A stretch of DNA of 60,890 bases, the filler included, from Theionarchaea archaeon (GTDB lineage Archaea > Methanobacteriota_B > Thermococci > Methanofastidiosales > SZ-28-30), in assembly GCA_018992565.1 (NCBI GenBank). It is 6 parts of 6 records of this genome, joined end to end, with 100 filler letters (N's around TTAATTAATTAA, not from the genome) between each part and the next. Parts side by side here need not be neighbours in the genome. Positions count along the whole stretch, not along the records: positions 20,662 to 27,421 come from JACVGW010000119.1; 5 more parts are not named here. One strand, given 5' to 3'. Below are positions 5,580-51,624 of the stretch, in pieces. A program made the translations under genes and the position numbers. Numbering within the stretch: position 1 is the first letter of the stretch; the number at the start of each line of letters is the position of its first letter. Under the pieces are notes generated by a model, which saw only the letters and a list, made by a program, of their open reading frames with translations, ran no database searches and was not told the origin of the DNA.

Positions 5580-5679
5580 NNNNNNNNNNNNNNNNNNNNN
5601 NNNNNNNNNNNNNNNNNNNNNNNNNNNNNNNNNNNNNNNNNNNNNNNNNNNNNNNNNNNNNNNNNNNNNNNNNNNNNNN

Positions 5680-13798: not shown

Positions 13799-16018
13799 AA
13801 GAAAATAGAAAAAAGAACCAAAGACCATTACGTGCATTGACCTGTGAGTGACCAACTTCATTGCTGCCTCTATCACTGATTCCTCTGCCAGCATCACCTT
13901 CTGGAGATCTCCAGCATCCAGTGCAGCACCGAGGACATCAAGAGCTCTAAGGTAATCCTCCAGTTCTTCTTTTGGCACGTGCCCTTCCAGTTCGTGAGCA
14001 ACCTTCACTTCCAGTTCAAAGATTTCGCGCTTCAACTCCATCGTCGCCTCGGGATTGCTACAGATTTCCTCCCGCAGACCAGCATCGATCAATTTCACCA
14101 GACGTGCTGCTGCTTCCGATTCATACTCCTGAGCTATTTGGGCGAAAACCTCTGCAGTGCGCTTCAGTGCTGATTGACAATCACCTGGTGAAGTCACGCG
14201 AATCAGGAAGGTGACAGCGCCGATGATCTCATCTCCCACGACTTCTTGTACTCGTACCGTGAACTCCTGGCCGATCCTAGCTTCCTCAGGAATGGTGAAC
14301 TCAAGGGTCACTTCTTGTCTCTCCATGGGTTTCAGCTGTATCCCCCTGATTGCTACCTCTTTCTGTCGTGCGATCAGCAGCCCAAGCATTTCCTCCCCCC
14401 CACGCTCCACGAGTTCTGCGCCTTCCAGGAACGTGGACTGGCTCAAAAAAATCCCCACTGAATCTGCAGGAAATACAAGAACGAGCTCTCCCTCAGGAAA
14501 ACCTGACCTGTCAATTATGAGGTCAAAGGGAATTGTCTCCTTCATGTTATTTTCAATGAAGAACCGAGCCTCAGCAGTGTGACCGGCGCTACCCTCTACG
14601 ATGGTGACGTTTTTCTGCGCGATGTTGTTGTCAAATGGTGCGACATAGGTCCCGGGACCGCCAGTCATGGGGTCCTCACTACACTGGGCTGTGGCCACAA
14701 AGCAAAAGTGGTGTCCCATGCCAAAAGCCGGGTCTACATACCAGGACCAGGTATGCTCCGCACTCCCGCCTGCGGTGATGCTGGGGATGGTATAGGTGCC
14801 CCCTATCTGAGTGAAATCACCTGGCCACGCTGTTGCTGTGCTGGTGTCGGCCCAGTACAGGGCGACATCTACACTGGTGACAGGTGTACTCCCAAGGTTA
14901 TGTACTCTCACATGTACGTAGTTCGTCAAGCCGCTCACTGGGTTCTCGTGCGAGGTTCCACTGGGTGTCACCGATGACCAGATGTCTATACTACTGTAGT
15001 CGTAGGAGTTGTTGCCACTATCGTTTGGCCCATCTGAAATCCACACATCAGCTCCACGACAGGTATGGAAGACATCTGATGCATTGAGTGAGGTGGGATC
15101 TATCTGTGGACAACTGTCACCAGAGAGTCTGGCAGCATCATTGTCCCAGGCGTACTGGTACGCCTCGCCCACTGAAATGGCACCATCACCATCAAGGTCA
15201 GCATCAGGCGTGCTGAAGGCCTCAATGTAGCCCCCAGGAAATTCGCTCCCTGTGTCACCAGGGTTAGGATCTACAAGAGGATCTACGTCCCCGTAGGAAG
15301 AATGAAGCGTATCAGTTGCGGTCATGACGATACGATTGGTCTCTCCATCACCTGTCAGTTCGTTCTCTGCAGCAACAATCCTATCGCAGTAGGCGCCGAT
15401 GAAACTCCCGCTGTGACAGGCTTCAATCAGGATGATCATGTCACGGGAGGTGATTGTGTCCAGCCAATTGTCCACATTTGTAGAACTGATTGTGCCCCCA
15501 CCAGGTGCCCCTGGATTGCAGTCCAGAGAATCCACGCCCCCATGCGAGGTGTAGAAGAAGAATACTGTGTCCTCAGAGTCACTCCTGGCTGCCACCTGGT
15601 TGATAGCCCACTGCACGTTGCTGATGTTCGTCACGCGATCCACCCCCTGGTCACCTGTCCAGGGACTGACGTAGAAGATGTGGTCGTCTGCATACCCTAG
15701 CCCAGTGAGGACATTGTAGATGCCTTTAATGTCCTCGTCAAATGTGTCTGTCACATCATCGGACCCGCACACGATGATCGCCCACGCTTCGCAGCCAGGG
15801 AGCGCATGCGTTCTCAAAGGGGGCAATTCAGGCAGTCCAATGCTGACGAGCTCTGCCTCGATCTTTTCAGGTTCGGTTTCATAGACCAGGAACTCGTCAC
15901 TTGCTCGTTCAATGAATTTACCCCACATCTCTTTGCCATTGACCACGGGCCACCATTCGGCCTCTTTGATTGTCATCTCCCCTGTAGAAGCGCTAACGAG
16001 CACGTATAGCGTCTTGTG
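13799..16018 (-). CDS. Clan CD cysteine peptidase (legumain/caspase-like) with Ig-like/CARDB domains; both ends truncated
   Basis: WAIIVCG, FFFYTSHGG (His), ILIEACHSGSF (Cys), DLDGDGAIS Ca-binding motif, VRVHNLG...DNNIAQKN. Confidence 0.8.
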
Positions 16019-16571
16019 NNNNNNNNNNNNNNNNNNNNNNNNNNNNNNNNNNNNNNNNNNNNNNNNNNNNNNNNNNNNNNNNNNNNNNNNNNNNNNNNNN
16101 NNNNNNNNNNNNNNNNNNTTGGCATTCTATTCCCTCCTTTTTTTGCTAGATCAGATTATTTCTGTCTCTTTTCTCGAATCTTTGATCACATAAGAATTTT
16201 CTTGATGACGCTTAGCCGAATAATGGAGGATTTGAGAACACCAGTTTGCATATTCCCAGAAGAACACCGTAGAAAGAAGTATAAACGGCCCTACTTTATA
16301 ATACTTTAAAAGGATGTGACCATATATACTTCTAAATGTCTTAGTTGCGGGAAATATTTGTTTGAAATCATCTATCCCAAGATGGTCAGCATTCTCTTAC
16401 ACGAGATCCAATCATCACCATCCAGAGAATTCATCACACTGGATCTAAAAAGAAGTCACTGACAACAGCCATTCATGACCCTTTCGCATCTTTATCAACC
16501 TCGTGGCATCCTGTTGCCTTTACATATGTTAATACCTATAACCTTTTAAATGGAATGTGGAAGTGAACACT

Positions 16572-20661: not shown

Positions 20662-20978
20662 CAGTTTCACTGGATCTATCTCCTGCATGTGCTCTGACCT
20701 TGTATCATGGAACAACAGAGAAGGCAGCTTCGAGCATCCTGAAAGAAGGACTGAAACCCAAGACCAGACAGAAAGTCCACCTCTCACCAAGCATTGAGAC
20801 AGCATTGGACGTGGGGAAACGACACTGCGAAACCCCTGTAGTCCTGGAAATAAATACCAGAAAAGCACTGGAAGATGGTATCTCCATTCAGAAGGCCAGC
20901 AATGTAGTCTACGTGGCAGACTACATACCTCCCCAGTACATTACAGTCCTCAGGAAGCGGCGATTTTCTACTGAATAG
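20662..20978 (+). CDS. kptA: RNA 2'-phosphotransferase (KptA/Tpt1), C-terminal part
   Basis: YHGT, GLKP..RQKVHLS, VGKRH, VY...IPPQY. Confidence 0.85.
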
Positions 20979-21124
20979 CACCCTTCAGAGTAAGATTTTA
21001 AGATACCTCTTGTTCTCAACAAAGACAGAAAATACATTTCTATCACTTGATTTGGACTAAACCCAAAAATTTATAAGCCATGCTATAAAGAGACGTTTAG
21101 AATCTCTATGACGGAGGTGACACC

Positions 21125-21289
21125 ATGTATGCAGCATTGATCTCAGATGGGATTGAAGGGAACCCAGCTCCTCTCGGGTCATGTATCAATGGAGACGGGC
21201 CAGAGTATGGATTCTACTGCTTCAACCTGGGCATAACGCCAACTGGCGGAGGAAAATGCAAATATGGCTTGCAGAGCATGAACGAATAG
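21125..21289 (+). CDS. Putative RiPP precursor P1, 54 aa: MYAALISDGIEGNPAPLGSCINGDGPEYGFYCFNLGITPTGGGKCKYGLQSMNE
   Basis: Absent from ORF track; TTTATAA box 21070-76, RBS GGAGGTGA 21113-20, T-tract after stop; 3 Cys spaced 12-13 aa; paralog at 58395. Confidence 0.8.
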   Translation: MYAALISDGIEGNPAPLGSCINGDGPEYGFYCFNLGITPTGGGKCKYGLQSMNE

Positions 21290-21406
21290 TACATGTAGGA
21301 GAAACGATTTTTCAGCTCCTTTTTTTCTCTTTCTCATTTGAGGTCAGAATACGGCATGGCTTAACGTCATGGAAACCCTCATATAGGTACATGTTCCCGG
21401 CTTCTC

Positions 21407-22132
21407 ATGATTATCACTGAGAGAGAGGGGATTTGTCCCGCATTGCGCAAGTACTATTCCCGGTTAGCCAGATTCATGATAGCACTTGTGGAAATCCCAG
21501 AGAATGCCATCATTCTGGAAGCAGGGTGTGGTGACGGTGCTTTAACCTGTCATCTTCTTTCGCTCTTGCCAGATCATGTAGTTGTAGGCTATGATTTGTT
21601 TTCGGGCGTCTATGAGGAAAGTCTCAGTGCTTTAACAGGAGCAGTGTCACAGATGAGAGTAATCAGAGGAGACGTGAGAACCATGAGTCTCCATACAGAA
21701 TCTGTGGACCTTGTTATCAGTAATGAATTACTCTGTGACCTCTCCAGGAATGATACCCAGGTGACACTCAATGAGTTCTACAGGATTCTGAGAAAAGGGG
21801 GGACTTTTATTCACGGATGCTTGAGTCCTTATCCAGAAACCAGGGCTCAGGAGCTGGTCTTATTGGCTGACAGTTATTCTGCTGATCCTTTATTTGATCA
21901 CGAATGGTTTTCCCCGCCTGCAGATGAACTGGCAGGAATGGTTCACTCTGCAGGGTTTCGCCAGATCTCTGTGACGTATTTTTCTGATAGCCTGAAGTTC
22001 ACCGGTGATGCAGCTTTCTGCCACTTAGAAGAGTGGGTTCTAAAACCTGAGTTCTTTGAGAAGTATTCCTCAGAGGTCAGGGCCCGCGGGATCGAATATC
22101 CCATGGAGCAGGTAATACACTGCTGTAAGTGA
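21407..22132 (+). CDS. Class I SAM-dependent methyltransferase
   Basis: ILEAGCGDG, GDV, VDLVIS, YRILRKGG. Confidence 0.9.
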   Translation: MIITEREGICPALRKYYSRLARFMIALVEIPENAIILEAGCGDGALTCHLLSLLPDHVVVGYDLFSGVYEESLSALTGAVSQMRVIRGDVRTMSLHTESVDLVISNELLCDLSRNDTQVTLNEFYRILRKGGTFIHGCLSPYPETRAQELVLLADSYSADPLFDHEWFSPPADELAGMVHSAGFRQISVTYFSDSLKFTGDAAFCHLEEWVLKPEFFEKYSSEVRARGIEYPMEQVIHCCK

Positions 22133-22351
22133 AGAGGTTCATGAGAATATTCGAAACTCGGTGGATAATTAAAGATGAGAGTTTCCAATTCATCAAGACA
22201 GCAATGGGTTGGATATCATAATAGACTGTGCCTCAAAATCAAGGGGTTGTGTATGTTCCCAGTGGTGTCCCAGGAGTGTCTTTCGTGAAGTGAATATTCA
22301 TTTTCCAGGTACAGTGACAGGGTTTTTAATTGAAGGGTTTAAAGAGGAGTC

Positions 22352-22717
22352 ATGACATGCAAAGAGATGATTGCTGTCTGTGGATTGGATTGTGAATCCT
22401 GCGACATCAGGAGGGTACCATTTGACTCAGACGCACGTGAACGCATGGTGAAATGGTTTAGAGCACAGGGATGGATTAAGGAGAGTGAGGGTGTTGAAGA
22501 AATAATCAGCCGCAAAATGTATTGCAAAGGATGTCGTGGCGATCGCTCTGTTCACTGGTCACCAGAGTGTCCAATTCTGGTGTGCTGTGTTGATGAGAAG
22601 GGGTTCAAGAGCTGTCATGAATGCAACGACTTCCCCTGTGAAAAGCTGGAAAAGCAGGCTGAACAGGGAGGAAAATATCGCGAAGCCCTTGACCGTCTCA
22701 GAACCATGAAAAAGTGA
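22352..22717 (+). CDS. Cys-rich DUF3795-like protein
   Basis: AVCGLDCESC, CKGC, C.I..CC..KG..SC.EC..FPC. Confidence 0.8.
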   Translation: MTCKEMIAVCGLDCESCDIRRVPFDSDARERMVKWFRAQGWIKESEGVEEIISRKMYCKGCRGDRSVHWSPECPILVCCVDEKGFKSCHECNDFPCEKLEKQAEQGGKYREALDRLRTMKK

Positions 22718-22864
22718 GAGCTTAAAAGGAAATATCATGTACCAGCAATTGCTGTGCTTCTTGTTAAGGATTTCCTGAAGATTGCAGCACGAAGAAGACA
22801 ATGATAATGACTGATCCGGGTTCTCAATCTATACATTTATATATTTGAAAGGGGCTGCCTCTGT

Positions 22865-23479
22865 ATGGAAGATCTGAAGGGAAGGTATGTTCGCTGGTCT
22901 GAAGCCTGTGTCTGGCAGCCCTTTGGCACTTCTCTGGCCATTCTCAGAGTTCTGGCACCTGATTCTTCGCCCTCGCAGGAAAGCGAAGGGATCAAACTGA
23001 ATGCAACAGGGAAAGATGTGTGGGATCTATGCGATGGTACAAGAACGGTTGACGACATTGTGGCCCAGTTACTGGAAGAATACCAGGGCGAACCAGAAAG
23101 AATCCAGGAAAGTGTGGAAACCATAGTATTGATGTTACAAGAACGGGGGTTCTTAACATGTGAAAGTACTCCTCACCTCTATTCGGTACGTGAGATCCCA
23201 CTCCAGGACTATGCCTGCTGGAATGACACAATCATCTGGAATGAGGTGGAAGGCCAGGTGGTGGCGATGAACAACTCTACAGGAGTCGCTCTTCCAATTC
23301 CCACTGAAGCAGCTGAAATGTGGAAGTTGTGTAATGGTAAAACCGCAGTGGAAGATATTTTTTCCATCCTCAAATCGAAGGGATTAATCACACAAAAGAT
23401 GCCTCTTGCCAAATTTAAATTACTTCTGAAACAGTGGATAAAGCTCAATTTCATTATCCTGAAGGATGAGCCTCTATGA
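22865..23479 (+). CDS. Tandem PqqD/RRE peptide-chaperone protein
   Basis: Two PqqD-like units: LNATGKDVWDLCDGTRTVDDIVAQLLEEY and AAEMWKLCNGKTAVEDIFSIL. Confidence 0.88.
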   Translation: MEDLKGRYVRWSEACVWQPFGTSLAILRVLAPDSSPSQESEGIKLNATGKDVWDLCDGTRTVDDIVAQLLEEYQGEPERIQESVETIVLMLQERGFLTCESTPHLYSVREIPLQDYACWNDTIIWNEVEGQVVAMNNSTGVALPIPTEAAEMWKLCNGKTAVEDIFSILKSKGLITQKMPLAKFKLLLKQWIKLNFIILKDEPL

Positions 23480-23488
23480 GGAGATTGC

Positions 23489-24835
23489 ATGCGTGCCTTG
23501 AAAAAAAGAATTACTGTTGAGTTACCTAGTGAAAAATACCTCCTTATTAACCCTTATTCCGGCCTGGCTGACATCATCGATTCAGAAACCAAGAATCTGC
23601 TGGACTCTGAATCAAGTGATGCAACCTATGAGGTCCTTCGTATTCTCAAATCAAGAGGACACCTGGTAGAAGAGGGAGAAGAAGATGATCTTTTTGAATA
23701 CTTGAAGCTCTATGCACAAGAACTGCACTCAGAGGCCTGCAAGAAGAACCACCACCTCATCATCCCCACCTACCACTGCAATCTGACGTGTCCCTACTGC
23801 TTTCAGAAGCACGTATATCGCAAGCGAGCAAACCTCCACATGGTAATGGATGAACAGACTGTAGATTCGCTCTTTAAGGCCATTCTTTTTCTGGATTCTG
23901 AAACTGAAGAAAAATGCATAGAACTATATGGTGGAGAACCTCTTCAAGTGAGGAATATCTCTATTATAGAGTACATCCTCAGAAAAGGTGATTATAACGG
24001 GTATTCATTTAGAGCAATAACTAATGGGGCTGATTTCTATCATTTTGTCCCTTTGCTATCTGAATTCGATGTCAAGGAGGTTCAAATAACTCTCGATGGT
24101 CCCAGGAACGTGCATGATCAAAGACGATTCAGAAAAGGGGGGACGTTTGATGATATTGTGAAAGGCATTGACCTGGCCCTGGAGCATGACATTCCAATAA
24201 GAATCAGAATCAACGTCGACTATGAAAATATCGATTCTATTCCAGAACTTGCACAGTTCTACATAGAAAAGGGATGGTCCTCAAAGGTGAAGGCCAGCAT
24301 AACCAGTGTCTATGCGTCTGAATGTGTGGAGTACCCTTCTGTCATCCCACTGGAGGACGTTCCCCGGAAGATTATTGACCTGTTCTTCAAAGATGAGAGA
24401 ATGACTGTGTTCTCTGATACCTTCAAGGGGCTCAATTTTCTCCTGGGTCACCTTCTACTTGGAGAAGAATTCCACCACCGCTTCTGGGCGTGTAATGCTC
24501 ATACCACACTCCTCTTCTATGATCCTCTTGGAGATATCTATGCATGTGGTGAAGCTGTCGGACATCCGGAGCATGTCATTGGTAAATACATACCTGCACT
24601 CCGCTTCAATGACACGTACTCTCACTGGCGCAACAGGACAGTATTTGCCATTCCTGAATGCACAGAATGCAACCTGGCATTTTTCTGTGGAGGCGGCTGC
24701 GCCTACAAAGCGTATACAGAAACACATTCTATCTACAGTCCGTACTGCGAAAATGTGAAATTCTCGTTGAACTGTGAAGTTCCCTACCTGTATCATGTAG
24801 CCAAACAGAAAGAAGAGAAGGAGGGTGATCTCTGA
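23489..24835 (+). CDS. Radical SAM/SPASM peptide maturase
   Basis: CNLTCPYC, YGGEP, TNG, QITLDG; SPASM C...GDIYAC...CTECNLAFFCGGGC...C; N-terminal RRE-like segment. Confidence 0.93.
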   Translation: MRALKKRITVELPSEKYLLINPYSGLADIIDSETKNLLDSESSDATYEVLRILKSRGHLVEEGEEDDLFEYLKLYAQELHSEACKKNHHLIIPTYHCNLTCPYCFQKHVYRKRANLHMVMDEQTVDSLFKAILFLDSETEEKCIELYGGEPLQVRNISIIEYILRKGDYNGYSFRAITNGADFYHFVPLLSEFDVKEVQITLDGPRNVHDQRRFRKGGTFDDIVKGIDLALEHDIPIRIRINVDYENIDSIPELAQFYIEKGWSSKVKASITSVYASECVEYPSVIPLEDVPRKIIDLFFKDERMTVFSDTFKGLNFLLGHLLLGEEFHHRFWACNAHTTLLFYDPLGDIYACGEAVGHPEHVIGKYIPALRFNDTYSHWRNRTVFAIPECTECNLAFFCGGGCAYKAYTETHSIYSPYCENVKFSLNCEVPYLYHVAKQKEEKEGDL

Positions 24836-24922
24836 GGCTGTATCAGAGCAGCGGGAATAGTCCTGGCATACTAATACCTGCATATCTTTGAATTTTGCCC
24901 GAATCTTTCTGCATATCTTTAT

Positions 24923-26743
24923 ATGTCAAGAATGAAGAGGATTTTTATGATGAAGCTCCATCTGCATGCCAATTTTCCCTATGATTACACCACACCAAAT
25001 GCAGCTCTCGGATATTTGAAATCGTATCTTGCACCATTCAACCATGAGGTAACGAATACATACTGGTATATCCCCCCACGAGAGATTTTTGAGGCCATGC
25101 GTGGGATCTTGGCACGGTTCCAGAAGAGCCGCATCAGCCTCTTTGATCCTTCAATTATCCTCACTGCGTACCTGTCACGGTTCTTTTACAGGGCCCCGGC
25201 ATGCCCCACCATGATCCAATCAATCGTGACCTCCTGTGCATCTCCAGAAGAATTGGAACAGGTTGGATTGTCCTACAAAGGGTTTGTAGATACTGCCCTT
25301 GAGGACATGGCTGATGTAGACATGGCAGGATTCACCCTCAAGTTCTACCAGTGGATTCTGAATTGCTACATCTGGCGCAGACTAAAGCAGCTGAACCCGA
25401 ATATCACTATTGTTATAGGTGGCCTCGATACACGTGAGGAGGCAGTAAAGGCCATGGAGACCTTCAGGGACGTGGACTGCGCCATCTGGGGAGAAGGTGA
25501 ATGTCCGCTGCGAGAGCTGATTACCAGGGATACGGACGGCATGGATGAAGTGCCCCGCCTCATCTACAGGAAGCGCGGTGACCTCTGTATAACTGATATC
25601 ACTACAGAGAGAGTGAGAGAATACCCCTTTGCAGACCATACAGACTACTTTAGACAGCTCAGACAGTTTGATCTGGATATTTCTCCACAGATCCCCATGT
25701 TCACCACCCGCTCCTGCAGGTGGGACAAATGTAAATTCTGCAACGAAAATAAGGGGATCTCCTACTTTGAACGATCAATAGATGAGACTATCAAGGAGAT
25801 AGAATATCAAACCAAGACTCATGGTGTTGACCGGATTGTGTTCCTGGACGCAGATATTGGACGGAAAACTGAGAGAGATTTCAAGAACCTTTTGGAAGGG
25901 CTTCTTCACAGTGTGGATACCAGAGGAGCCCCCTATGATATGGTGGCTGACATATCTCCACAGAGACTGACCAGAGAGACTGTCCAGATGATGAGCAAGA
26001 TCAGGATGGGTGTGCAGATAGGGTTTGAAGCCTTGACAGATTCTCTCTTGAGAAAGATGAATAAGAGGCATTCGTTTCTGGAGAATATCCAGGCTCTCAA
26101 GGTTGCATATGAGTATGGGCTGAAGATGTATGGGCTGAATGTGCTGCGTAACCTCCCGGGGGAGACAGAGCATGAGGTCATGGAGAGTATGGAACAGATA
26201 AAGGGTCTCCGGTTCTTCTTGAGGGAATATCCCCTTCATCTGTCTGAGCTGACACTGTATAAGAGGGCACCCTACTTCAAGGAGATTTCTCCAGAGGAAC
26301 GGGAAACGAGATGGGTTGTCAACTTCCTGTATGATGAGATGTGTCAGCAGGGCCTCCTCAATGAGGAGGGAAGGTGGGACTTTTTTGGGTTCAGGGCACG
26401 GGATTTGATACATCATAACCTGTGGGACCAGGTGGCGACACTGCTGGAACGGGTCCAGTCAGAGACCATTTCGTATACGTGGCAGGAACACGGGGATGGG
26501 AGTGTATTGATTGAGAATAACCAGGTGACTGGGGACAAGAAGTACGTCCTCACCAGGACTGAAACTGACGTTCTGAAGTTCTGTGACAGTGTCGTGTCTT
26601 TAGAACAGGTGGAGGAGAGATTTCCTGATGACGATATTAGTGATATACTCTCACAGCTGAGGAAGGAAGCTTTCCTGTATCTTGATGAAAGGAATCGAGT
26701 AATTTCTATTCTCTCTGCCCGGAAGATTGTCCCAGAAGACTGA
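24923..26743 (+). CDS. Cobalamin-type (class B) radical SAM enzyme, RiPP C-methyltransferase-like, with C-terminal RRE-like wHTH
   Basis: PNAALGYLKSYL, IVIGG, WGEGE, RSCRWDKCKFC (CX4CX2C), QIGFEAL..LL.KMNK; C-terminal LTRTETDVLKFCD. Confidence 0.85.
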   Translation: MSRMKRIFMMKLHLHANFPYDYTTPNAALGYLKSYLAPFNHEVTNTYWYIPPREIFEAMRGILARFQKSRISLFDPSIILTAYLSRFFYRAPACPTMIQSIVTSCASPEELEQVGLSYKGFVDTALEDMADVDMAGFTLKFYQWILNCYIWRRLKQLNPNITIVIGGLDTREEAVKAMETFRDVDCAIWGEGECPLRELITRDTDGMDEVPRLIYRKRGDLCITDITTERVREYPFADHTDYFRQLRQFDLDISPQIPMFTTRSCRWDKCKFCNENKGISYFERSIDETIKEIEYQTKTHGVDRIVFLDADIGRKTERDFKNLLEGLLHSVDTRGAPYDMVADISPQRLTRETVQMMSKIRMGVQIGFEALTDSLLRKMNKRHSFLENIQALKVAYEYGLKMYGLNVLRNLPGETEHEVMESMEQIKGLRFFLREYPLHLSELTLYKRAPYFKEISPEERETRWVVNFLYDEMCQQGLLNEEGRWDFFGFRARDLIHHNLWDQVATLLERVQSETISYTWQEHGDGSVLIENNQVTGDKKYVLTRTETDVLKFCDSVVSLEQVEERFPDDDISDILSQLRKEAFLYLDERNRVISILSARKIVPED

Positions 26744-26893
26744 GCATGTAGTTGCTACTGTTGTATCGGCTTACATCAGACTGTGAGATAGAGGCAGTTC
26801 GAATTATTTGTAGCAGGATGTTCAAAAATTCTGATTCTTACCTGACAAAAGATATATATAGGTGAAGCGTGAAGAGTCAGCAGAGGTGATACA

Positions 26894-27016
26894 ATGGAAG
26901 TCGTACGACTCAACAAGAAGATGTGGACTGATGCTACTGTGGAACCCTTGGATTTCAATCCAGGACCTGCTGTCATCTGCGGCTGCGGTGGCGGCTGCTG
27001 TTATGGCAGATGGTAG
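26894..27016 (+). CDS. Putative RiPP precursor P3, 40 aa: MEVVRLNKKMWTDATVEPLDFNPGPAVICGCGGGCCYGRW
   Basis: Absent from ORF track; own TATA (GATATATATA ~26851-60), RBS GAGGTGA, T-tract ~27050-66; Cys/Gly core. Confidence 0.85.
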   Translation: MEVVRLNKKMWTDATVEPLDFNPGPAVICGCGGGCCYGRW

Positions 27017-27521
27017 TCACTGTAGCGAATGAAGACCTCTGAAACACACCTCTTTCTCTTTTTTTTAATTACTCCGACTCTGACAGCTCTCAAGTCTGTC
27101 CAGGACTGGACCTGCTTCATACTGGAGGCGACATATTCATTCTGATAGAGATTCCATCATTTTCAGGAGCAGTGGGTAGTACACTTCTCTGGCCTGCTTG
27201 GAAAAGGTGCAGTCTGGCTGGAGCAACCTCCCTTTTTCTTGATATGTGTAGTGGCCACATCCTCCGCCACAGATCATGGCAAACTTGCAGTAATGACATG
27301 ATTTCATGTGAAAGATTGTTCTCTTTCTCCATTGGTGATACTTCTGGTTAAATGAAAGATCAGGGTAATATCTCCCAACTGCATGTTGGGGATCACCCAG
27401 AGAATCAGTGCAGAAATAGAGNNNNNNNNNNNNNNNNNNNNNNNNNNNNNNNNNNNNNNNNNNNNTTAATTAATTAANNNNNNNNNNNNNNNNNNNNNNN
27501 NNNNNNNNNNNNNNNNNNNNN

Positions 27522-28771: not shown

Positions 28772-29425
28772 ATGAAAGTGGTGCTGCGTATTGGCGGTTC
28801 TGTTCTGGTACCTTCAGAAATTGATGAAGGAGTCCTTGCAGCCCTGGTGGCCCAGGTCGAAAAAGCCAGGTCAGTCCACTCCCTGTTCCTGGTAGTGGGG
28901 GGAGGCAGGACTGCGCGGAGGTACATTACCGCAGCCAGAACCTACAACACCACAGATGAAGTCCTGGACACCCTGGGAATACTCTCCTCGCAGTTGAACG
29001 CACTGCTGCTCGCCACCTGCATTGGAGGAGCAGAACTGGTGAGAGACATCCATGAAGCTATCCATGCACGGGGGCTCCCCATTCTAGGTGGGACTACGCC
29101 CGGTCAGACTACTGACACGGTGGCAGCTCTGCTGGCAGAGGTGGTCAATGCAGAAATCATGGTGAAGGTGACTCATGTAGGAGGTATTTTTACTGCTGAT
29201 CCTGCACGAGATCCAGGCGCAAAGAAGATTTCAAAGATGAGTTTCAGCCAGCTGGAATCCTTTTCTAGAGAAGAGTTCAAGGCGGGAATTTCATCTGTTA
29301 TTGATCCCGTTGCTGCAGCTATTATCTCGCAGAACAACCTCAAGACTGTCGTAATTGGTGTCGAAGACATGAAAGACCTGGAGAAGGTTCTCACAGGTGA
29401 CCATTCAGGGACTATCGTTGGATAG
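28772..29425 (+). CDS. pyrH: Archaeal UMP kinase
   Basis: RIGGSV, VVGGGRTARRYI, PGQTTD, GIFTADP; divergent from aRF1. Confidence 0.93.
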   Translation: MKVVLRIGGSVLVPSEIDEGVLAALVAQVEKARSVHSLFLVVGGGRTARRYITAARTYNTTDEVLDTLGILSSQLNALLLATCIGGAELVRDIHEAIHARGLPILGGTTPGQTTDTVAALLAEVVNAEIMVKVTHVGGIFTADPARDPGAKKISKMSFSQLESFSREEFKAGISSVIDPVAAAIISQNNLKTVVIGVEDMKDLEKVLTGDHSGTIVG

Positions 29426-31567
29426 ACGTCTTCCTGAAGCTGGTGGTGCACCCGTGTCCTGAGTGGAAATCTGAATTCTCTGGAATCGATACCCCGGGGC
29501 CCAGAAACAGACGATAATGTGGTCTCTGGCAGCAGAGACTGCTGCACTTCTTAAAGAAACGGTAACATATGTTGAAGAGGGTGTCAGTTTCTTGATTAAA
29601 TCACTGTCATTCCAGAGGGTGAGGACAGTACCTGCAGGGCAACACTCCATGTTAATTCTCAGGTACCCCTGATGGTAGTCAGTACGTATGGCATTGGTCC
29701 GGGGACATTCTTTCCAGATCTCAAGAGATGGATCTCCAATGACATGGTAGATTTCCAAGTGATCCTTGACGTAGCGCAGACCTCCACTTAACGTCAGGGG
29801 CAAATATGTCTTGGCATAATTGAGAATATCACCTATTCTGTTGTTTTTCACTGTATAGTTTGCTGTGAATCCTGGAATCCGGGGGATAATCCCCGACCAT
29901 ACAGCATCGAAGAGTGCTTTCATCAAGTCATCATTGAGCCAGGTGTGGGAAGGCCTGGTTGCTGCAATAAGAGATGGGGCACCTCCGTCCATGGAGAGCA
30001 GCTTCTCAGCAAAACACTCCCTGGGCCTCCTGAGGTCAAACTGGCCCGTCAGGCAATTGATGCTGTAGAAGATGGAAGGCGTGTCACTGCTAATCGATTC
30101 AAGGTGAGATATCTTAAATGCGGGGTGAACCCATCCTGCGGGGGATCCGTGATCTCTGTGCCCAACCAGGAGGCACCCTTCAGAGACTGCTTCAATGAGT
30201 TTTTGACTGGCTTCCTCCTCATTGAAAATGTGTGATCTCACCGTCTCGGGTACTGGGCTTCCGTCAACATACTCTCTCATGTCAGGATTGCTACTGACAT
30301 ACACCCGTTCCACTTCAACCCCCAGATCTTCAATGTGAGAAGCTATAGTCTCCATAGTCTTAACGTATGCCCTGTCTTCTCTGCCATCTCGTTTGCCTTT
30401 GTCCTGGAAGTAGGCCGCAAATACCATCTTTCTATAGTAGTGAAGGTCGTCCGGGGGATCTCTCTCATATGAGATTATCCTGTCCACTACAGCCAGTCCC
30501 TGCTCTTCAGTTTGGACAGGAATGCGTCCCACTGAAAGCCAGGGCAGTACATACTGGTCGCTGCGGACTGGATCTTCTTCTGTGCTGTAGTAGTAATCAG
30601 TGATATTGTGGCCTGAAGGGCTCCCTGTAATTTTCTCTGCAGGGATGACCTCAATATCCCCAAATAACAGGACATACTGAAGACGACCTCCTGCAGCTCT
30701 CTTTCTTCTGCGGATATATTCTTTTACAGCGTCCACAGTAGCCCCCACTCGATCTAATGATACCGCCTCTGTGGAAAGTCCCCGCATAGTCTTCCAGTAG
30801 GCCAGCTTACCTGCAGGGTCCCTGAATTGATCGTGGTAGATAATGAGGAGTTCTGGACCCTTTCCCGCCAGGGGGGCTCTTGTCACAGGAGAAGGTACCT
30901 CTCCTCTGCCTGCAATTCTCCGCAGGGGATTTAGAAAGAGATTTTCATAGGCTTTCCTGTTTGTTGCAGTCTCTATAGATTCCCCTTCCCCAGGAGATGG
31001 ACTGAGATGGATGGTTACCGTAATGGAACTGAACCCCACCAGTCTTCTACGAGCGGGATTGTACTGGAGAGGTCTCACATGGATGAGCAAAGCGTGATAG
31101 CCATCAATAGAGAGGGGACCTGTCACCTCCACAATGGTGTCAGGATACAGCCTGTCGATCTTGTAGAAGTCTTTGTCATACTCGAATTGGTTCTTCTTCT
31201 TGCTGTCCACCAGCAGCTCCTGAGCAGGTAGAATCAAGACATGGTCAAAATAGACTGGATTTTCTGGTTCCACAGTTACGCTGTAGCGGCAGCCACGAGG
31301 AATCTGCACATACCGTCCAAGAGAGGGCAGGAGTGGTTTGCCGCTCTCTGCCAGAAACTGGGTGTGAGGAATATTCACCTGGTTGAAAGGGATGACGACG
31401 CCCTCGACGGTGCGTGAATCGTCTGACAGGAAAAACCCTGAAAATGTATAGGCAACTACAATTTTCTGTTCCCGTTCTTCTACGGTTACCAGAGGCTCCT
31501 CCCCGTGAAGACTCATAACATATTCAAAAGGGAGACCTTCCGGCTTCAATGATTTAAACTCCCTCAT
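29405..31567 (-). CDS. Gingipain-like C25 cysteine peptidase with propeptide
   Basis: GKPLLP propeptide, PLQYNP, YVLLFGD, TDYYY, VGRIP, HRDHG (His), SINCLTG (Cys), YHVIGDP. Confidence 0.9.
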   Translation of the reverse strand: MREFKSLKPEGLPFEYVMSLHGEEPLVTVEEREQKIVVAYTFSGFFLSDDSRTVEGVVIPFNQVNIPHTQFLAESGKPLLPSLGRYVQIPRGCRYSVTVEPENPVYFDHVLILPAQELLVDSKKKNQFEYDKDFYKIDRLYPDTIVEVTGPLSIDGYHALLIHVRPLQYNPARRRLVGFSSITVTIHLSPSPGEGESIETATNRKAYENLFLNPLRRIAGRGEVPSPVTRAPLAGKGPELLIIYHDQFRDPAGKLAYWKTMRGLSTEAVSLDRVGATVDAVKEYIRRRKRAAGGRLQYVLLFGDIEVIPAEKITGSPSGHNITDYYYSTEEDPVRSDQYVLPWLSVGRIPVQTEEQGLAVVDRIISYERDPPDDLHYYRKMVFAAYFQDKGKRDGREDRAYVKTMETIASHIEDLGVEVERVYVSSNPDMREYVDGSPVPETVRSHIFNEEEASQKLIEAVSEGCLLVGHRDHGSPAGWVHPAFKISHLESISSDTPSIFYSINCLTGQFDLRRPRECFAEKLLSMDGGAPSLIAATRPSHTWLNDDLMKALFDAVWSGIIPRIPGFTANYTVKNNRIGDILNYAKTYLPLTLSGGLRYVKDHLEIYHVIGDPSLEIWKECPRTNAIRTDYHQGYLRINMECCPAGTVLTLWNDSDLIKKLTPSSTYVTVSLRSAAVSAARDHIIVCFWAPGYRFQRIQISTQDTGAPPASGRRLSNDSP

Positions 31568-34172: not shown

Positions 34173-34961
34173 ATGAAAGAGAATTCAAGGGCTAGTTCAG
34201 AAAAGCAGTTTCAGAACCTCAGGAGATTCAATGCTTTCATGGGTGTCCTCCATCTAGTTCAGGGCATACTCATGGTGGTCATCAGCAGCGACTTCTCTTT
34301 GCCTGTGACTACTACCTATCTGCAGTTCAATTCGGAAACCAGCAGTCTCATACCGGTTACAGAGACGCTGTATCACCTGCCGCTGGGTCCTGCAGTTGCC
34401 CTCTTCCTGTTCATGTCAGCTACTGCACATTTTGTCGTGGCCTCCCCCCAAGGGTTCCCTATGTACGTCAGGAATCTGACGTCGCACATGAATAGCTTCC
34501 GCTGGATCGAGTACGCTTTCAGTGCCTCATTGATGATCGTGTTGATTGCCATGCTTGTAGGGATCTATGACGTTGGAACACTCCTGGCTCTGTTTACGCT
34601 GACAGGGGTTATGAATCTCATGGGATACATGATGGAACTCCATAATCAGAGCACTGAAAAGACGAGCTGGACGTCTTATATCATCGGATGCATTGCAGGA
34701 GTTGTACCCTGGATTGTGATTTTTATATCACTGCTGGGCGCTTCATCCACAGAGGGGACGTCAGTTCCCACCTTTGTCATAGCAATATTCATCTCGATTG
34801 CTGTGTTCTTCAACCTCTTTGCTGTGAATATGGTCCTTCAGTACAAGAAAGTGGGCAGATGGAGGGACTACCTCTACGGAGAAAAGATGTACATCGTTTT
34901 GAGCCTTGTTGCTAAGTCACTGCTAGCGTGGCAAGTATTCGCAGGGACACTGCGTCCGTAG
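34173..34961 (+). CDS. Heliorhodopsin
   Basis: LRRFN..MGVLHLVQG, NSFRWIEYAFSASLM (counterion Glu), YIVLSLVAKSLLAWQVF (retinal Lys). Confidence 0.93.
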   Translation: MKENSRASSEKQFQNLRRFNAFMGVLHLVQGILMVVISSDFSLPVTTTYLQFNSETSSLIPVTETLYHLPLGPAVALFLFMSATAHFVVASPQGFPMYVRNLTSHMNSFRWIEYAFSASLMIVLIAMLVGIYDVGTLLALFTLTGVMNLMGYMMELHNQSTEKTSWTSYIIGCIAGVVPWIVIFISLLGASSTEGTSVPTFVIAIFISIAVFFNLFAVNMVLQYKKVGRWRDYLYGEKMYIVLSLVAKSLLAWQVFAGTLRP

Positions 34962-36074: not shown

Positions 36075-37961
36075 ATGAAAACCCTACGTGCAACTCTCGC
36101 AGGTGGAATTATCCTGTTGAGCCTTCTACTTCCAAGTGTCAACTCCCTGGACATTCCTGCAGAGTTTTTTGTTCATGAGGAAACTGGCACAACTGCAGTC
36201 ACCATTGTGGTGGGCAAGCAGGCTGCTGCTATGGACGTTGTATCAGCGACTCTTCTGGCTGCAGCAATTGGAACAATGAGCTTCGCTGAATCTGATGATC
36301 TCATAATAATAGGAGCTTATTCAGCATCTCATGATGATATTCGTCTCCTTGATGAAGAAAATGGAGGGATGCCTGCAGTTGATGTACCGGACAGCGCCCC
36401 CTATGCAGAGTGGGATAATACTACATCTCCTCTCACCTATACTCTTGGGGGGCTGTGGTACTTTGATGACGAGGAACATGCCTTCTGGGGGAATGGAGAC
36501 GGTACATTCCAGCCTTGGGAGACACATGAAGAATTTCAGCTTCAATTCGATCTGGAACGCGCGAGCACGTCTTCTGGATGCAGGACGTGTTTGTATGGGT
36601 GGGAAAAAGAGATCCATGAACAAGCACATTCTGAATGGAGCCGGATCTCTGGAATCATATACAGAGCAGATAATATCTTTGTCCCTCCTACAATCCTGGT
36701 GGATCTGCAGAAAGAAGAACCTCCGAACTTTCCCTACGCCGAGGACTTCGATCCATACACGCTGCTCTTTGTCCCTGAACCCTGGATGGTCATACATGAC
36801 CACCTTCCTTGCTTTACACTCTTTGGAGACATGTACACTGTGATAGATGCGGGCCCTGTGCTGGATGTCAACTTCATCACAGGAAAAGCTGGTTCTCTTC
36901 ACGGCATGCCGTATATCATAACAGGCCAACCCCATTTTGAAGAAGTACTACTGAAGAAAGGAGATCCTTATACTGTCGCTGATTATTCAGTAGAACTTCT
37001 GGACGTTGATATTGACAACAATAGAGCCTATTTTTCGGCTTCCATGTACGGAGAGGTTCTGGAATATTTCTGGGTGGTACTTGATCCTCTCACTGGATTC
37101 TCCTCAGAAGTCTACAGTGAGAATTTCCCCTTTGCCGCGTACCAGTGTTGCACTGATGTGAATAGAAACAGAAGACTGGACCCGGGAGAGCTGACTGCTC
37201 TTGCTACCTACGACTACGATAGCGATGGTGTTCGTGATTATGAAAAACCAATTATCCATCGCATTGAAGAAGGTGCTTGGGCAGATTACACATGGTTCTA
37301 TTACACGAATGACAGGGGACAAGGGAGTCTCCTGTTCAGCGCAGTTGATATCGTCATTGATGGCATCCAAATAGTCACAGGTGAAGGTGGTGCTCTGGCT
37401 GTAAGATCCAATGTATACTGGCTGGAAAACAAGAAGTTCTGGTACGGTAGATCGTGTGCCTCTCCCTGGACATCTGATCCTCATGATTACAGGCTTGTCC
37501 TGGATGTATGCCAGGCAGGATGGGATGACAGAGACGAGGGATTGCTTATCCACCAGCCTCCAGGTACTGGATTGTGGCCACCTGTTACTTCCTTGGACGA
37601 AGACGACGTACTGGGTAATGGGTTTCTGGACAGCAACGACGGCCACAGCGGATACGAGGTGATGCAGTGGCATGGGGTTCTACCTGAGTGTGACGATCTG
37701 GACAGGGATGGCAGCTTNNNNNNNNNNNNNNNNNNNNNNNNNNNNNNNNNNNNNNNNNNNNNNNNNNNNNNNNNNNNNNNNNNNNNNNNNNNNNNNNNNN
37801 NNNNNNNNNNNNNNNNNTCTATGGTAAACTGGGAAATATCTGCTGGCGAATGGGAATACATTAGAGCACCGTACGGAACCTGTGACATTCTCATTGTAGC
37901 AGGAAAAGATCGAGATGCTACTCGGGAAGCCGTCTTGGCCCTAGTTGAAGGACTGAGGTAA
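36075..37961 (+). CDS. S-layer protein (Thermococcales/Methanococcales-type termini), internal N gap at 37718-37817
   Basis: Signal peptide; IVVGKQAAAMDVVSA at N-terminus; ILIVAGKDRDATREA at C-terminus; acidic, with DxDxDG motifs. Confidence 0.85.
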   Translation: MKTLRATLAGGIILLSLLLPSVNSLDIPAEFFVHEETGTTAVTIVVGKQAAAMDVVSATLLAAAIGTMSFAESDDLIIIGAYSASHDDIRLLDEENGGMPAVDVPDSAPYAEWDNTTSPLTYTLGGLWYFDDEEHAFWGNGDGTFQPWETHEEFQLQFDLERASTSSGCRTCLYGWEKEIHEQAHSEWSRISGIIYRADNIFVPPTILVDLQKEEPPNFPYAEDFDPYTLLFVPEPWMVIHDHLPCFTLFGDMYTVIDAGPVLDVNFITGKAGSLHGMPYIITGQPHFEEVLLKKGDPYTVADYSVELLDVDIDNNRAYFSASMYGEVLEYFWVVLDPLTGFSSEVYSENFPFAAYQCCTDVNRNRRLDPGELTALATYDYDSDGVRDYEKPIIHRIEEGAWADYTWFYYTNDRGQGSLLFSAVDIVIDGIQIVTGEGGALAVRSNVYWLENKKFWYGRSCASPWTSDPHDYRLVLDVCQAGWDDRDEGLLIHQPPGTGLWPPVTSLDEDDVLGNGFLDSNDGHSGYEVMQWHGVLPECDDLDRDGSXXXXXXXXXXXXXXXXXXXXXXXXXXXXXXXXXXSMVNWEISAGEWEYIRAPYGTCDILIVAGKDRDATREAVLALVEGLR

Positions 37962-51181: not shown

Positions 51182-51624
51182 TCCATCCATTTGAAAAGAA
51201 AAAAGTGTTCAGATCACGTAGCCGACTCAGCACCGTAGAGTCGTCCTCTTCTGTGCGAGGAAACCCTTCGAGGGGAGATATCAAGATGAAAAGGAAAAGA
51301 GTCATGAAAGTATGTCTATTTACAGGTATGTTGCTTATTCTGAGTTCTGGTTCTATACGTGCATGCAACCTGAGATTGAATTTGAACCTGAGACTGCCCC
51401 CGAATCTGCAGGTTTATTACGCTCCATCGTACTCGGTCTGGTTCTCATAGGTGCCATCCTACGTATTGGCTACACGGTTAAACACGCACATAGATAGAAG
51501 CTCCTGGAATGGAGAGAATTNNNNNNNNNNNNNNNNNNNNNNNNNNNNNNNNNNNNNNNNNNNNNNNNNNNNNNNNNNNNNNNNNNNNNNNNNNNNNNNN
51601 NNNNNNNNNNNNNNNNNNNNTTTT

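Follow-up and report, generated by a model that had tools for sequence, protein, structure and literature searches.

Do archaea known from environmental DNA build cross-linked peptides with radical S-adenosylmethionine (rSAM) enzymes, and from which precursors? The question is raised by a 6.76-kb contig (JACVGW010000119.1) in the metagenome-assembled genome (MAG) of a Theionarchaea archaeon (GCA_018992565.1), Theionarchaea being a class of Methanobacteriota represented by environmental genomes only (NCBI taxonomy). The names of homologous proteins point to the same class. The contig spans positions 20662-27421 of the stretch of 60,890 nucleotides analysed here, hereafter the window. An initial annotation had described on it a candidate biosynthetic gene cluster (BGC) for ribosomally synthesised peptides with post-translational modifications (RiPPs), comprising two precursor peptides (P1 and P3), a class I methyltransferase, a DUF3795-like protein, a protein with tandem RiPP recognition elements (RREs), an rSAM enzyme with a SPASM domain and a cobalamin-type rSAM enzyme. 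All seven features were recovered, each on the + strand (Table 1). To our knowledge, archaea have so far yielded no characterised RiPP with radical SAM modifications. Our analysis suggests that the contig is probably the truncated core of a RiPP-type cluster in which P3 would be cross-linked and perhaps methylated. The reading as a RiPP-type locus is supported: members of the P3 family recur beside the tandem-RRE gene and an orthologous SPASM gene in related archaeal loci.

A peptide family that travels with a tandem RRE protein

A profile built from P3 and three relatives was searched against 5.8 billion proteins and retrieved 23 protein clusters at E <= 1.6e-6 (25 rows, the other two being noise at E ~7). 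The relatives have 50-76 residues and, where named at all, are called 'hypothetical protein [Theionarchaea archaeon]'. All 24 aligned sequences have the leader residues N7, K8, K9 and W11 in common, and the core that follows is a run of Cys and Gly mostly ending in a hydrophobic, Cys-containing tail. One relative (P0145), encoded on a JGI contig of 35,955 nt, is 90 % identical to P3, with four differences, all in the leader, and the same last 18 residues. Neither the P3 nor the P1 family has a match in Pfam or NCBIfam, even at E <= 10.

The genomic company of the family was established in loci obtained from two sources, a metagenome scan with the tandem-RRE alignment as bait and a Theionarchaea genome of ~3 Mb (G001). 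The bait yielded four JGI loci (L103-L106), all with an open reading frame (ORF) of the P3 family; three of them (L104, L105 and L106) encode an identical peptide and were counted as one locus. Their gene set consists of a tandem PqqD gene (50-58 % identity), then a SPASM gene termed 'a' (55-58 %), more SPASM paralogues and a class I methyltransferase. In G001, a P3-family member stands directly upstream of two SPASM genes (L099). The synteny check proposed with the initial annotation came out in its favour: among distinct loci with the tandem-RRE gene and the orthologous SPASM 'a' gene, a P3-family peptide is present beside them in three of the four that could be assessed. That P3 is a genuine RiPP precursor, belonging to a conserved and as yet unnamed leader/core family, is well supported by this comparison of sequences, given the 23-cluster family, the invariant leader motif and members beside RRE and SPASM genes (L099, L103, L105).

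When 24 SPASM paralogues from these loci were arranged in a maximum-likelihood tree, the window enzyme fell into a four-member clade, 'a' (support 100/99), all of whose members sit immediately downstream of a tandem-RRE gene. In the other three loci the 'a' gene is followed by a SPASM gene of the sister clade 'b'; in the window, this place is taken by the cobalamin-type enzyme. The related loci also encode a nitroreductase-fold protein and TehB/TPMT-like methyltransferases. When genomes were scanned with the SPASM alignment, the matches listed were mostly distant bacterial relatives, with one Theionarchaea locus among them.

As for the RRE protein, its first unit is unambiguously a PqqD/RRE domain (PF05402, residues 40-97, 76.3 bits against a cut-off of 23.4). 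The second unit scores 15.8 bits, below the same cut-off, and the two halves of the protein align to each other (BLASTP E 2e-4), which tentatively identifies unit 2 as a diverged, weak repeat of unit 1. The AlphaFold model has an overall pLDDT (predicted local distance difference test) score of 55.9. Its residues 1-102 match solved RRE-leader complexes, namely a lasso B1 protein with leader (6jx3_B; Z 10.3, rmsd 2.0, 85 aligned residues) and the TbiB1-leader complex (5v1u_A; Z 9.9), as well as PqqD (5sxy; Z 8.4); unit 2 has the beta3-alpha3 order in the model, at low confidence (pLDDT below 60). The description of the protein as a tandem RRE can be kept on these grounds. Its orthologues, at 73, 50 and 48 % identity, retain the two-unit form. 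Among genomes, the protein was encountered in G001 only, that is, in one of 100 sampled genomes of the class, one of 33 of the order and one of 132 of the class.

G001 also encodes, on contig C10, a fusion of PqqD, Radical_SAM and SPASM domains (L090). The tandem RRE aligns to residues 30-219 of this fusion, over ~190 residues and with 28 % identity, a region in which Pfam calls one PqqD domain; three further SPASM genes and a B12-type paralogue belong to the same cluster. The fusion of the RRE region to an rSAM/SPASM enzyme supports a functional link between the two. The initial annotation had also suggested that the two RRE units might serve P1 and P3, one each. This idea is not supported, because related loci retain the tandem form where no P1-like ORF was found. 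In the paralogous cluster of G001, one rSAM/SPASM enzyme alone carries the homologous RRE region as a fusion.

Table 1. Coordinates of the features in the window and of the G001 fusion gene (locus coordinates for the latter)
Feature	Position	Strand	Remarks
RNA 2'-phosphotransferase, 3' end	20700-20978	+	housekeeping; left edge of cluster
P1 TATA-like A/T-rich boxes	21070-21076, 21084-21089	+	read from sequence; consensus match
P1 Shine-Dalgarno match GGAGGTGA	21113-21120	+	consensus match
P1, 54-aa small protein, 3 Cys	21125-21289	+	candidate second precursor or unrelated small protein
T5 and T7 runs downstream of P1	21308-21326	+	terminator-like for archaea; read from sequence
Class I SAM-dependent methyltransferase, 241 aa	21407-22132	+	PF08241, PF13649
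DUF3795 protein, 121 aa, 12 Cys	22352-22717	+	PF12675, 59.3 bits against cut-off 22.6
Stand-alone tandem PqqD/RRE protein, 204 aa	22865-23479	+	PqqD and weak internal repeat
Radical SAM/SPASM peptide maturase (putative), 448 aa	23489-24835	+	'a' clade; follows tandem-RRE gene
Class-B-like (cobalamin-type) radical SAM enzyme, 606 aa	24923-26743	+	putative C-methyltransferase; C-terminal winged helix
P3 TATA-like alternating A/T box	26851-26860	+	read from sequence; consensus match
P3 Shine-Dalgarno match GAGGTGAT	26883-26890	+	consensus match
P3, 40-aa precursor peptide (predicted)	26894-27016	+	N-K-K-x-W leader; short Cys/Gly-rich core, 4 Cys
T8 run downstream of P3	27059-27066	+	read from sequence
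Radical SAM/SPASM enzyme, C-terminal 94 residues	27137-27421	-	convergent with P3; cut by contig end
PqqD + Radical_SAM + SPASM fusion, 616 aa	L090 5302-7149	+	G001:C10
100-N runs	5580-5679, 16019-16118, 37718-37817, 51521-51620		window

Radical SAM enzymes and the likely modifications

The complete SPASM enzyme belongs to the rSAM superfamily (PF04055, 60.6 bits against a cut-off of 29.5) and to the SPASM subfamily (TIGR04085, 46.9 against 27). It has the motifs CX3CX2C (residues 97-104), CX9-15GX4C (335-353) and CX2CX5CX3C (391-404), and Cys420 is a candidate for the seventh SPASM Cys. Its top NCBIfam matches are all peptide maturases, with CefB (NF038107, 141.1 bits) ahead of TIGR04463 (136) and Clo7bot (106); PapB (NF047865, 100.8) and SCIFF (TIGR03974, 90.7) are further matches. 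The enzyme is not a member of CefB, TIGR04463, PapB or SCIFF, whose cut-offs are 600, 525, 340 and 425, respectively; the alignments to the first two are near full length. The closest solved structure is CteB (5wgg/5why; E 2.9e-21, residues 70-430). Kinship with anaerobic sulfatase maturases, which the initial annotation had named as an outcome that would speak against a RiPP enzyme, does not apply, since the corresponding model (TIGR03942) ranks 17th among the NCBIfam matches with 56.4 bits, far below its cut-off of 349.45. Comparison of the N-terminal region with the RRE alignment gave no convincing match (hhalign E 0.064, probability 0.9 %).

A further rSAM/SPASM gene, overlooked by the initial annotation, lies on the opposite strand at the right end of the contig. 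Its product matches TIGR04085 at E 1.4e-4, contains CX2CX5CX3C and is 67 % identical to the C-terminus of the fourth paralogue of L105 (759-2105). Because the contig end falls inside this gene, the cluster is incomplete. The earlier statement that there is no protease or exporter on this scaffold therefore applies to a truncated cluster.

Several known systems resemble this locus. SCIFF/ranthipeptide systems (CteB, PapB), which as far as is known are bacterial and have a single enzyme, share the three-cluster architecture and a Cys-rich peptide substrate with it, but their precursor family is unrelated and the SCIFF (TIGR03974) and PapB scores fall below the cut-offs. A closer counterpart is archaeal: CrpC of Methanococcus voltae, a member of TIGR04463, was shown in 2026 to install ranthionine links on a Cys-rich protein (PMC13692751). 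CrpC combines a seven-Cys SPASM domain with an N-terminal RRE-like region, and its substrate CrpA is Cys-rich with a leader-like N-terminus (PMC13692751). TIGR04463 is the second-best NCBIfam match of the window enzyme, over residues 8-409. The two systems differ in their substrates, a peptide of 40-57 residues here and a 28.8-kDa repeat protein there (PMC13692751), and the present locus has components in addition to counterparts of the CrpA/CrpB/CrpC system, namely the stand-alone tandem RRE, several SPASM paralogues and the B12-type enzyme. Thioether formation on P3 by the SPASM enzyme is the best-supported inference from these sequences, given the kinship with maturases of Cys-rich substrates, the relationship to CteB and the chemistry of CrpC.

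The Crp system also lends itself to a different reading, in which the enzymes of the window would act on a protein instead of a peptide, like CrpC on CrpA; the Cys-rich DUF3795 protein would be one such candidate, and the small ORFs would be incidental. This reading would fit the 28.8-kDa Cys-rich substrate of the TIGR04463 member CrpC (PMC13692751), and the 12 Cys residues among the 121 of the DUF3795 protein, whose gene is just upstream of the RRE gene. We nevertheless regard it as highly improbable, as DUF3795 did not turn up in the related RRE/SPASM loci while a P3-family peptide occurs in three of four, and as the P3 family combines strong conservation with an N-terminus that resembles a leader.

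It is also conceivable, though unlikely in our estimation, that the same precursor and enzymes carry out another chemistry, yielding for instance cross-links of the C-C or C-O type, epimers, or a small cofactor or metal-binding compound derived from the peptide, according to the logic of pyrroloquinoline quinone (PQQ) or mycofactocin, with no secreted antimicrobial product. As in PqqD/PqqE and mycofactocin systems, a stand-alone PqqD-family chaperone gene directly precedes an rSAM/SPASM gene, although two PqqD-like units are combined in one 204-aa protein here; the PqqD equivalog (TIGR03859) reaches 44.2 bits where its cut-off is 46, and 46 bits are obtained with the mycofactocin rSAM model. 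Every curated thioether family is missed, the contig is without exporter or protease, related loci encode the nitroreductase-fold protein and the TehB/TPMT-like methyltransferases mentioned above, and the almost pure Cys/Gly core would suit metal binding. In contrast, Cys-directed thioether maturases account for the top-scoring families as well as for the best solved relative, and the conserved feature of the substrate is Cys. The closest experimentally studied archaeal family, TIGR04463, moreover makes ranthionines on a Cys-rich substrate (PMC13692751).

The second complete rSAM enzyme also belongs to the superfamily (PF04055, 52.2 bits against 29.5). It resembles the C-methyltransferase family TIGR03975, to whose 606-position model it aligns in full length, C-terminal domain included (residues 102-595), and with which it shares a RiPP-like setting; with 147.6 bits it stays below the cut-off of 281.85 and, by score, outside the family, and it differs further in its B12-binding domain and cluster motif (see below). 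PoyB/PoyC are class B radical SAM enzymes that C-methylate RiPPs. The closest solved relative of the window enzyme is TokK (E 1.3e-4). One study states that BGCs classified under the antiSMASH rule TIGR03975 were left out, as manual inspection suggested that they were probably false positives. G001 encodes five strong paralogues of the window enzyme (38-51 % identity), some in clusters that also have SPASM/RRE genes; a contig search of genomes with the cobalamin-type protein confirmed nothing.

The C-terminal domain of this enzyme had been called RRE-like. Modelled as a 140-aa piece, it has pLDDT values of 82-90 over residues 51-120, and the C-terminal 90 residues form three strands, three helices and a hairpin (beta3-alpha3-hairpin). 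The topology of the modelled winged-helix domain is RRE-like, and its assignment as an RRE is at most tentative: the top rows of a VIA fold search are generic winged-helix regulators (Z 7-8), Foldseek returned no match at E <= 0.001, and the comparison with the RRE alignment reached an hhalign E of 0.009 with a probability of 4.5 %.

We propose that the leader is bound by the RRE protein, perhaps jointly with the N-terminal region of the SPASM enzyme, and that the core is in this way offered to the enzymes. Along with at least one paralogue, the product of the cut gene, the SPASM enzyme would then use a 5'-deoxyadenosyl radical and auxiliary Fe-S clusters to link the sulphur of core Cys residues to the carbon of other residues, giving sactionine or ranthionine thioethers. 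In this cluster variant, the class-B-like enzyme, and perhaps the class I methyltransferase too, might add methyl groups. Both the thioether cross-links and the C-methylation are inferred from distant, sub-threshold family resemblance, and the type of reaction is extrapolated, as all the enzymes score below every specific family cut-off.

A number of observations weigh against a RiPP cluster as proposed here. The specific enzyme families are missed widely, with 136-148 bits against cut-offs of 282-600. In the cobalamin-type enzyme, the B12-binding domain is sub-threshold (PF02310, 19.4 bits against 32.1) and the cluster motif is CX4CX2C (residues 265-273) instead of the canonical CX3CX2C; the same motif is present in all six archaeal sequences of this enzyme that were compared. 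P3 itself is short and atypical, with four Cys where other family members have about 7-11, and it is devoid of their hydrophobic Cys-containing tail. One locus with an RRE protein, SPASM a, SPASM b and a methyltransferase (L098, G001:C1) gave no P3-like ORF over 20 kb in a tblastn search at E <= 0.1. No P1-like ORF was found in the tandem-RRE or B12 loci compared (L001-L106), and no protease or exporter gene is present on the truncated 6.76-kb contig.

P1 and the accessory genes

Whether the cluster has a second precursor depends on P1. Its homologues form one 90 % cluster of three members (P0123-P0125; 69-70 % identity to P1). Residues 28-48 are invariant in the four sequences and the N-terminus is variable; with homologues conserved in this way, the P1 gene is under selection. 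Its co-location with modifying enzymes was observed in this contig only. An exhaustive HMMER search returned four other proteins (P0157-P0160), long Cys-free repeat proteins that we judged to be compositional noise, and a weak match in another genome (G054, E 0.025, locus L107), without rSAM neighbours within its 2.6 kb, was set aside.

P1 and P3 have similar expression signals. As the initial annotation had indicated, both genes have a TATA-like box 35-55 nt upstream, a Shine-Dalgarno site and runs of five to eight T downstream, all of them consensus-like matches. The Shine-Dalgarno match is strong and 4-5 nt 5' of the ATG in both cases. The pattern GAGGTGA N3-8 ATG occurs seven times in the window where 1.53 occurrences are expected, a number reached in 1 of 100 shuffles; P1 and P3 account for two of the seven.

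We consider the chances that P1 is a RiPP substrate to be about even. It is just as plausible that the cluster has a single precursor and that P1 is an unrelated conserved small protein at its edge, beside the fragment of a housekeeping gene. P1 has no likeness to the P3 leader, and the absence of P1-like ORFs from the compared tandem-RRE and B12 loci extends to G001, which has no P1 homologue, and to 132 genomes of the class, where a search without positive control, and hence a weak one, gave 0 matches. A variable N-terminus followed by invariant residues 28-48 would also fit a small folded or binding protein. On the other hand, P1 has its own strong Shine-Dalgarno site and T-runs, like P3, and this Cys-bearing peptide is encoded directly upstream of the genes specific to this variant; its family is also tiny, which lessens the weight of its absence elsewhere. 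P1 may be a second substrate, handled by the accessory genes unique to this variant, those for the B12-type enzyme, the methyltransferase and the DUF3795 protein.

Two of these accessory genes are characterised in few terms. The methyltransferase matches PF08241 with 56.3 bits against a cut-off of 21.2, and PF13649 with 55.4 bits; no NCBIfam family is reached at its cut-off. The DUF3795 protein has a CX3CX2C motif at residues 10-17. It was not seen in related RRE/SPASM loci, and a search of the literature for DUF3795 found nothing relevant.

Novelty, contig support and other observations

The initial annotation called the cluster undescribed. This stands for the precursor families and the architecture, within the libraries and literature searched, and falls for the kind of system, which is known, also in archaea: an rSAM/SPASM enzyme, guided by an RRE, modifies a Cys-rich substrate of ribosomal origin, with or without a class B methyltransferase. 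As far as our searches reach, novelty lies in the precursor family, in an RRE that stands alone and has two units, in the teaming of SPASM paralogues and in the cluster variant with a CX4CX2C cobalamin-type enzyme. No mention of a 'tandem RRE' or 'double RRE' was found in the literature, and the Atlas clusters nearest to the tandem RRE, a lead only, are single-domain proteins of 93-126 residues. To judge from listings and abstracts, a literature search likewise found no paper on rSAM RiPPs of Theionarchaea. A preprint gives counts of archaeal rSAM RiPP clusters obtained by genome mining and reports failed attempts to activate archaeal rSAM clusters (10.1101/2024.10.07.616454). As to archaeal precedents for SPASM-dependent thioethers, the protein-directed CrpC was the only one found (PMC13692751).

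As a peptide system of an uncultured sediment lineage, the locus is compact and open to experimental testing; it offers a defined precursor family, a conserved RRE-enzyme pair and natural variants in which accessory enzymes are gained or lost. Such a system could reveal how several radical enzymes share one leader and what role a stand-alone two-unit RRE plays. A bolder proposal, to which we would give little credence at present, is that the N-K-K-x-W peptides represent a new, largely archaeal RiPP class with a Cys/Gly core, in which two to six paralogous SPASM enzymes would share the tandem RRE as a docking scaffold and generate a densely thioether-caged or metal-binding product. The window would then hold a hybrid variant, in which a SPASM paralogue was swapped for the CX4CX2C cobalamin-type enzyme and P1 was added as a further substrate unrelated to the first.

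The window as a whole is a chain of MAG contigs, with two kinds of gaps, 100-N runs (Table 1) and joints in which a 12-base linker has 44 N on either side. The features under study are all on one N-free piece between two such linker joints. Genes on separate pieces of the window cannot be read as neighbours, and the neighbourhood considered here is limited to the 6.76-kb piece. Logan contigs from four runs of four studies tile the full stretch, with small strain bubbles, and some pass both ends, by about 4.9 kb on the right and about 11.3 kb on the left; as the gene order is reproduced outside this assembly, it is not an artefact of a single assembly. Near-identical DNA is present in 20 public runs from seven studies, comprising estuary, marine-sediment, mangrove and soil metagenomes, which indicates that the organism is not rare. 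Not all of these runs are independent, as 16 of them are flagged as potential sources of the DNA. There are no RNA datasets among the sequencing runs listed with it.

G001 has an unusually large set of genes resembling rSAM peptide maturases for a small genome, with 30 matches to the window SPASM enzyme, of which 15 are near full length at E <= 1e-20. In L099 (1995-7640, - strand, G001:C18), the peptide and the two SPASM genes are followed on the same strand by a gene for a 1881-aa RHS-repeat protein. Another contig (G001:C2) carries, directly upstream of two SPASM genes and a gene for a major facilitator superfamily (MFS) transporter, a 75-aa ORF (L100, 9883-10110, - strand) in which a Cys-containing unit of nine residues occurs six times. 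According to Tandem Repeats Finder, the period is 27 bp, with 5.5 copies and 100 % matches. This ORF is a candidate multi-core precursor and recalls the repeated Cys motifs of CrpA. Two more Cys-containing ORFs of G001, of 38 aa (L087, 13109-13225, - strand) and 46 aa (L088, 5212-5352, + strand), head clusters of SPASM/rSAM genes and B12-type paralogues, with a 210-aa PqqD protein in L088; their sequences are unrelated to P1 and P3.

Finally, other contigs of the MAG in the window carry a full-length heliorhodopsin gene (34173-34958, + strand; PF18761, E 2e-102), here in a sediment archaeon, and genes for two large cysteine peptidases of secreted type, a gingipain-like C25 peptidase with propeptide (29408-31567, - strand) and a C13/C14-like protein (13799-16003, - strand).

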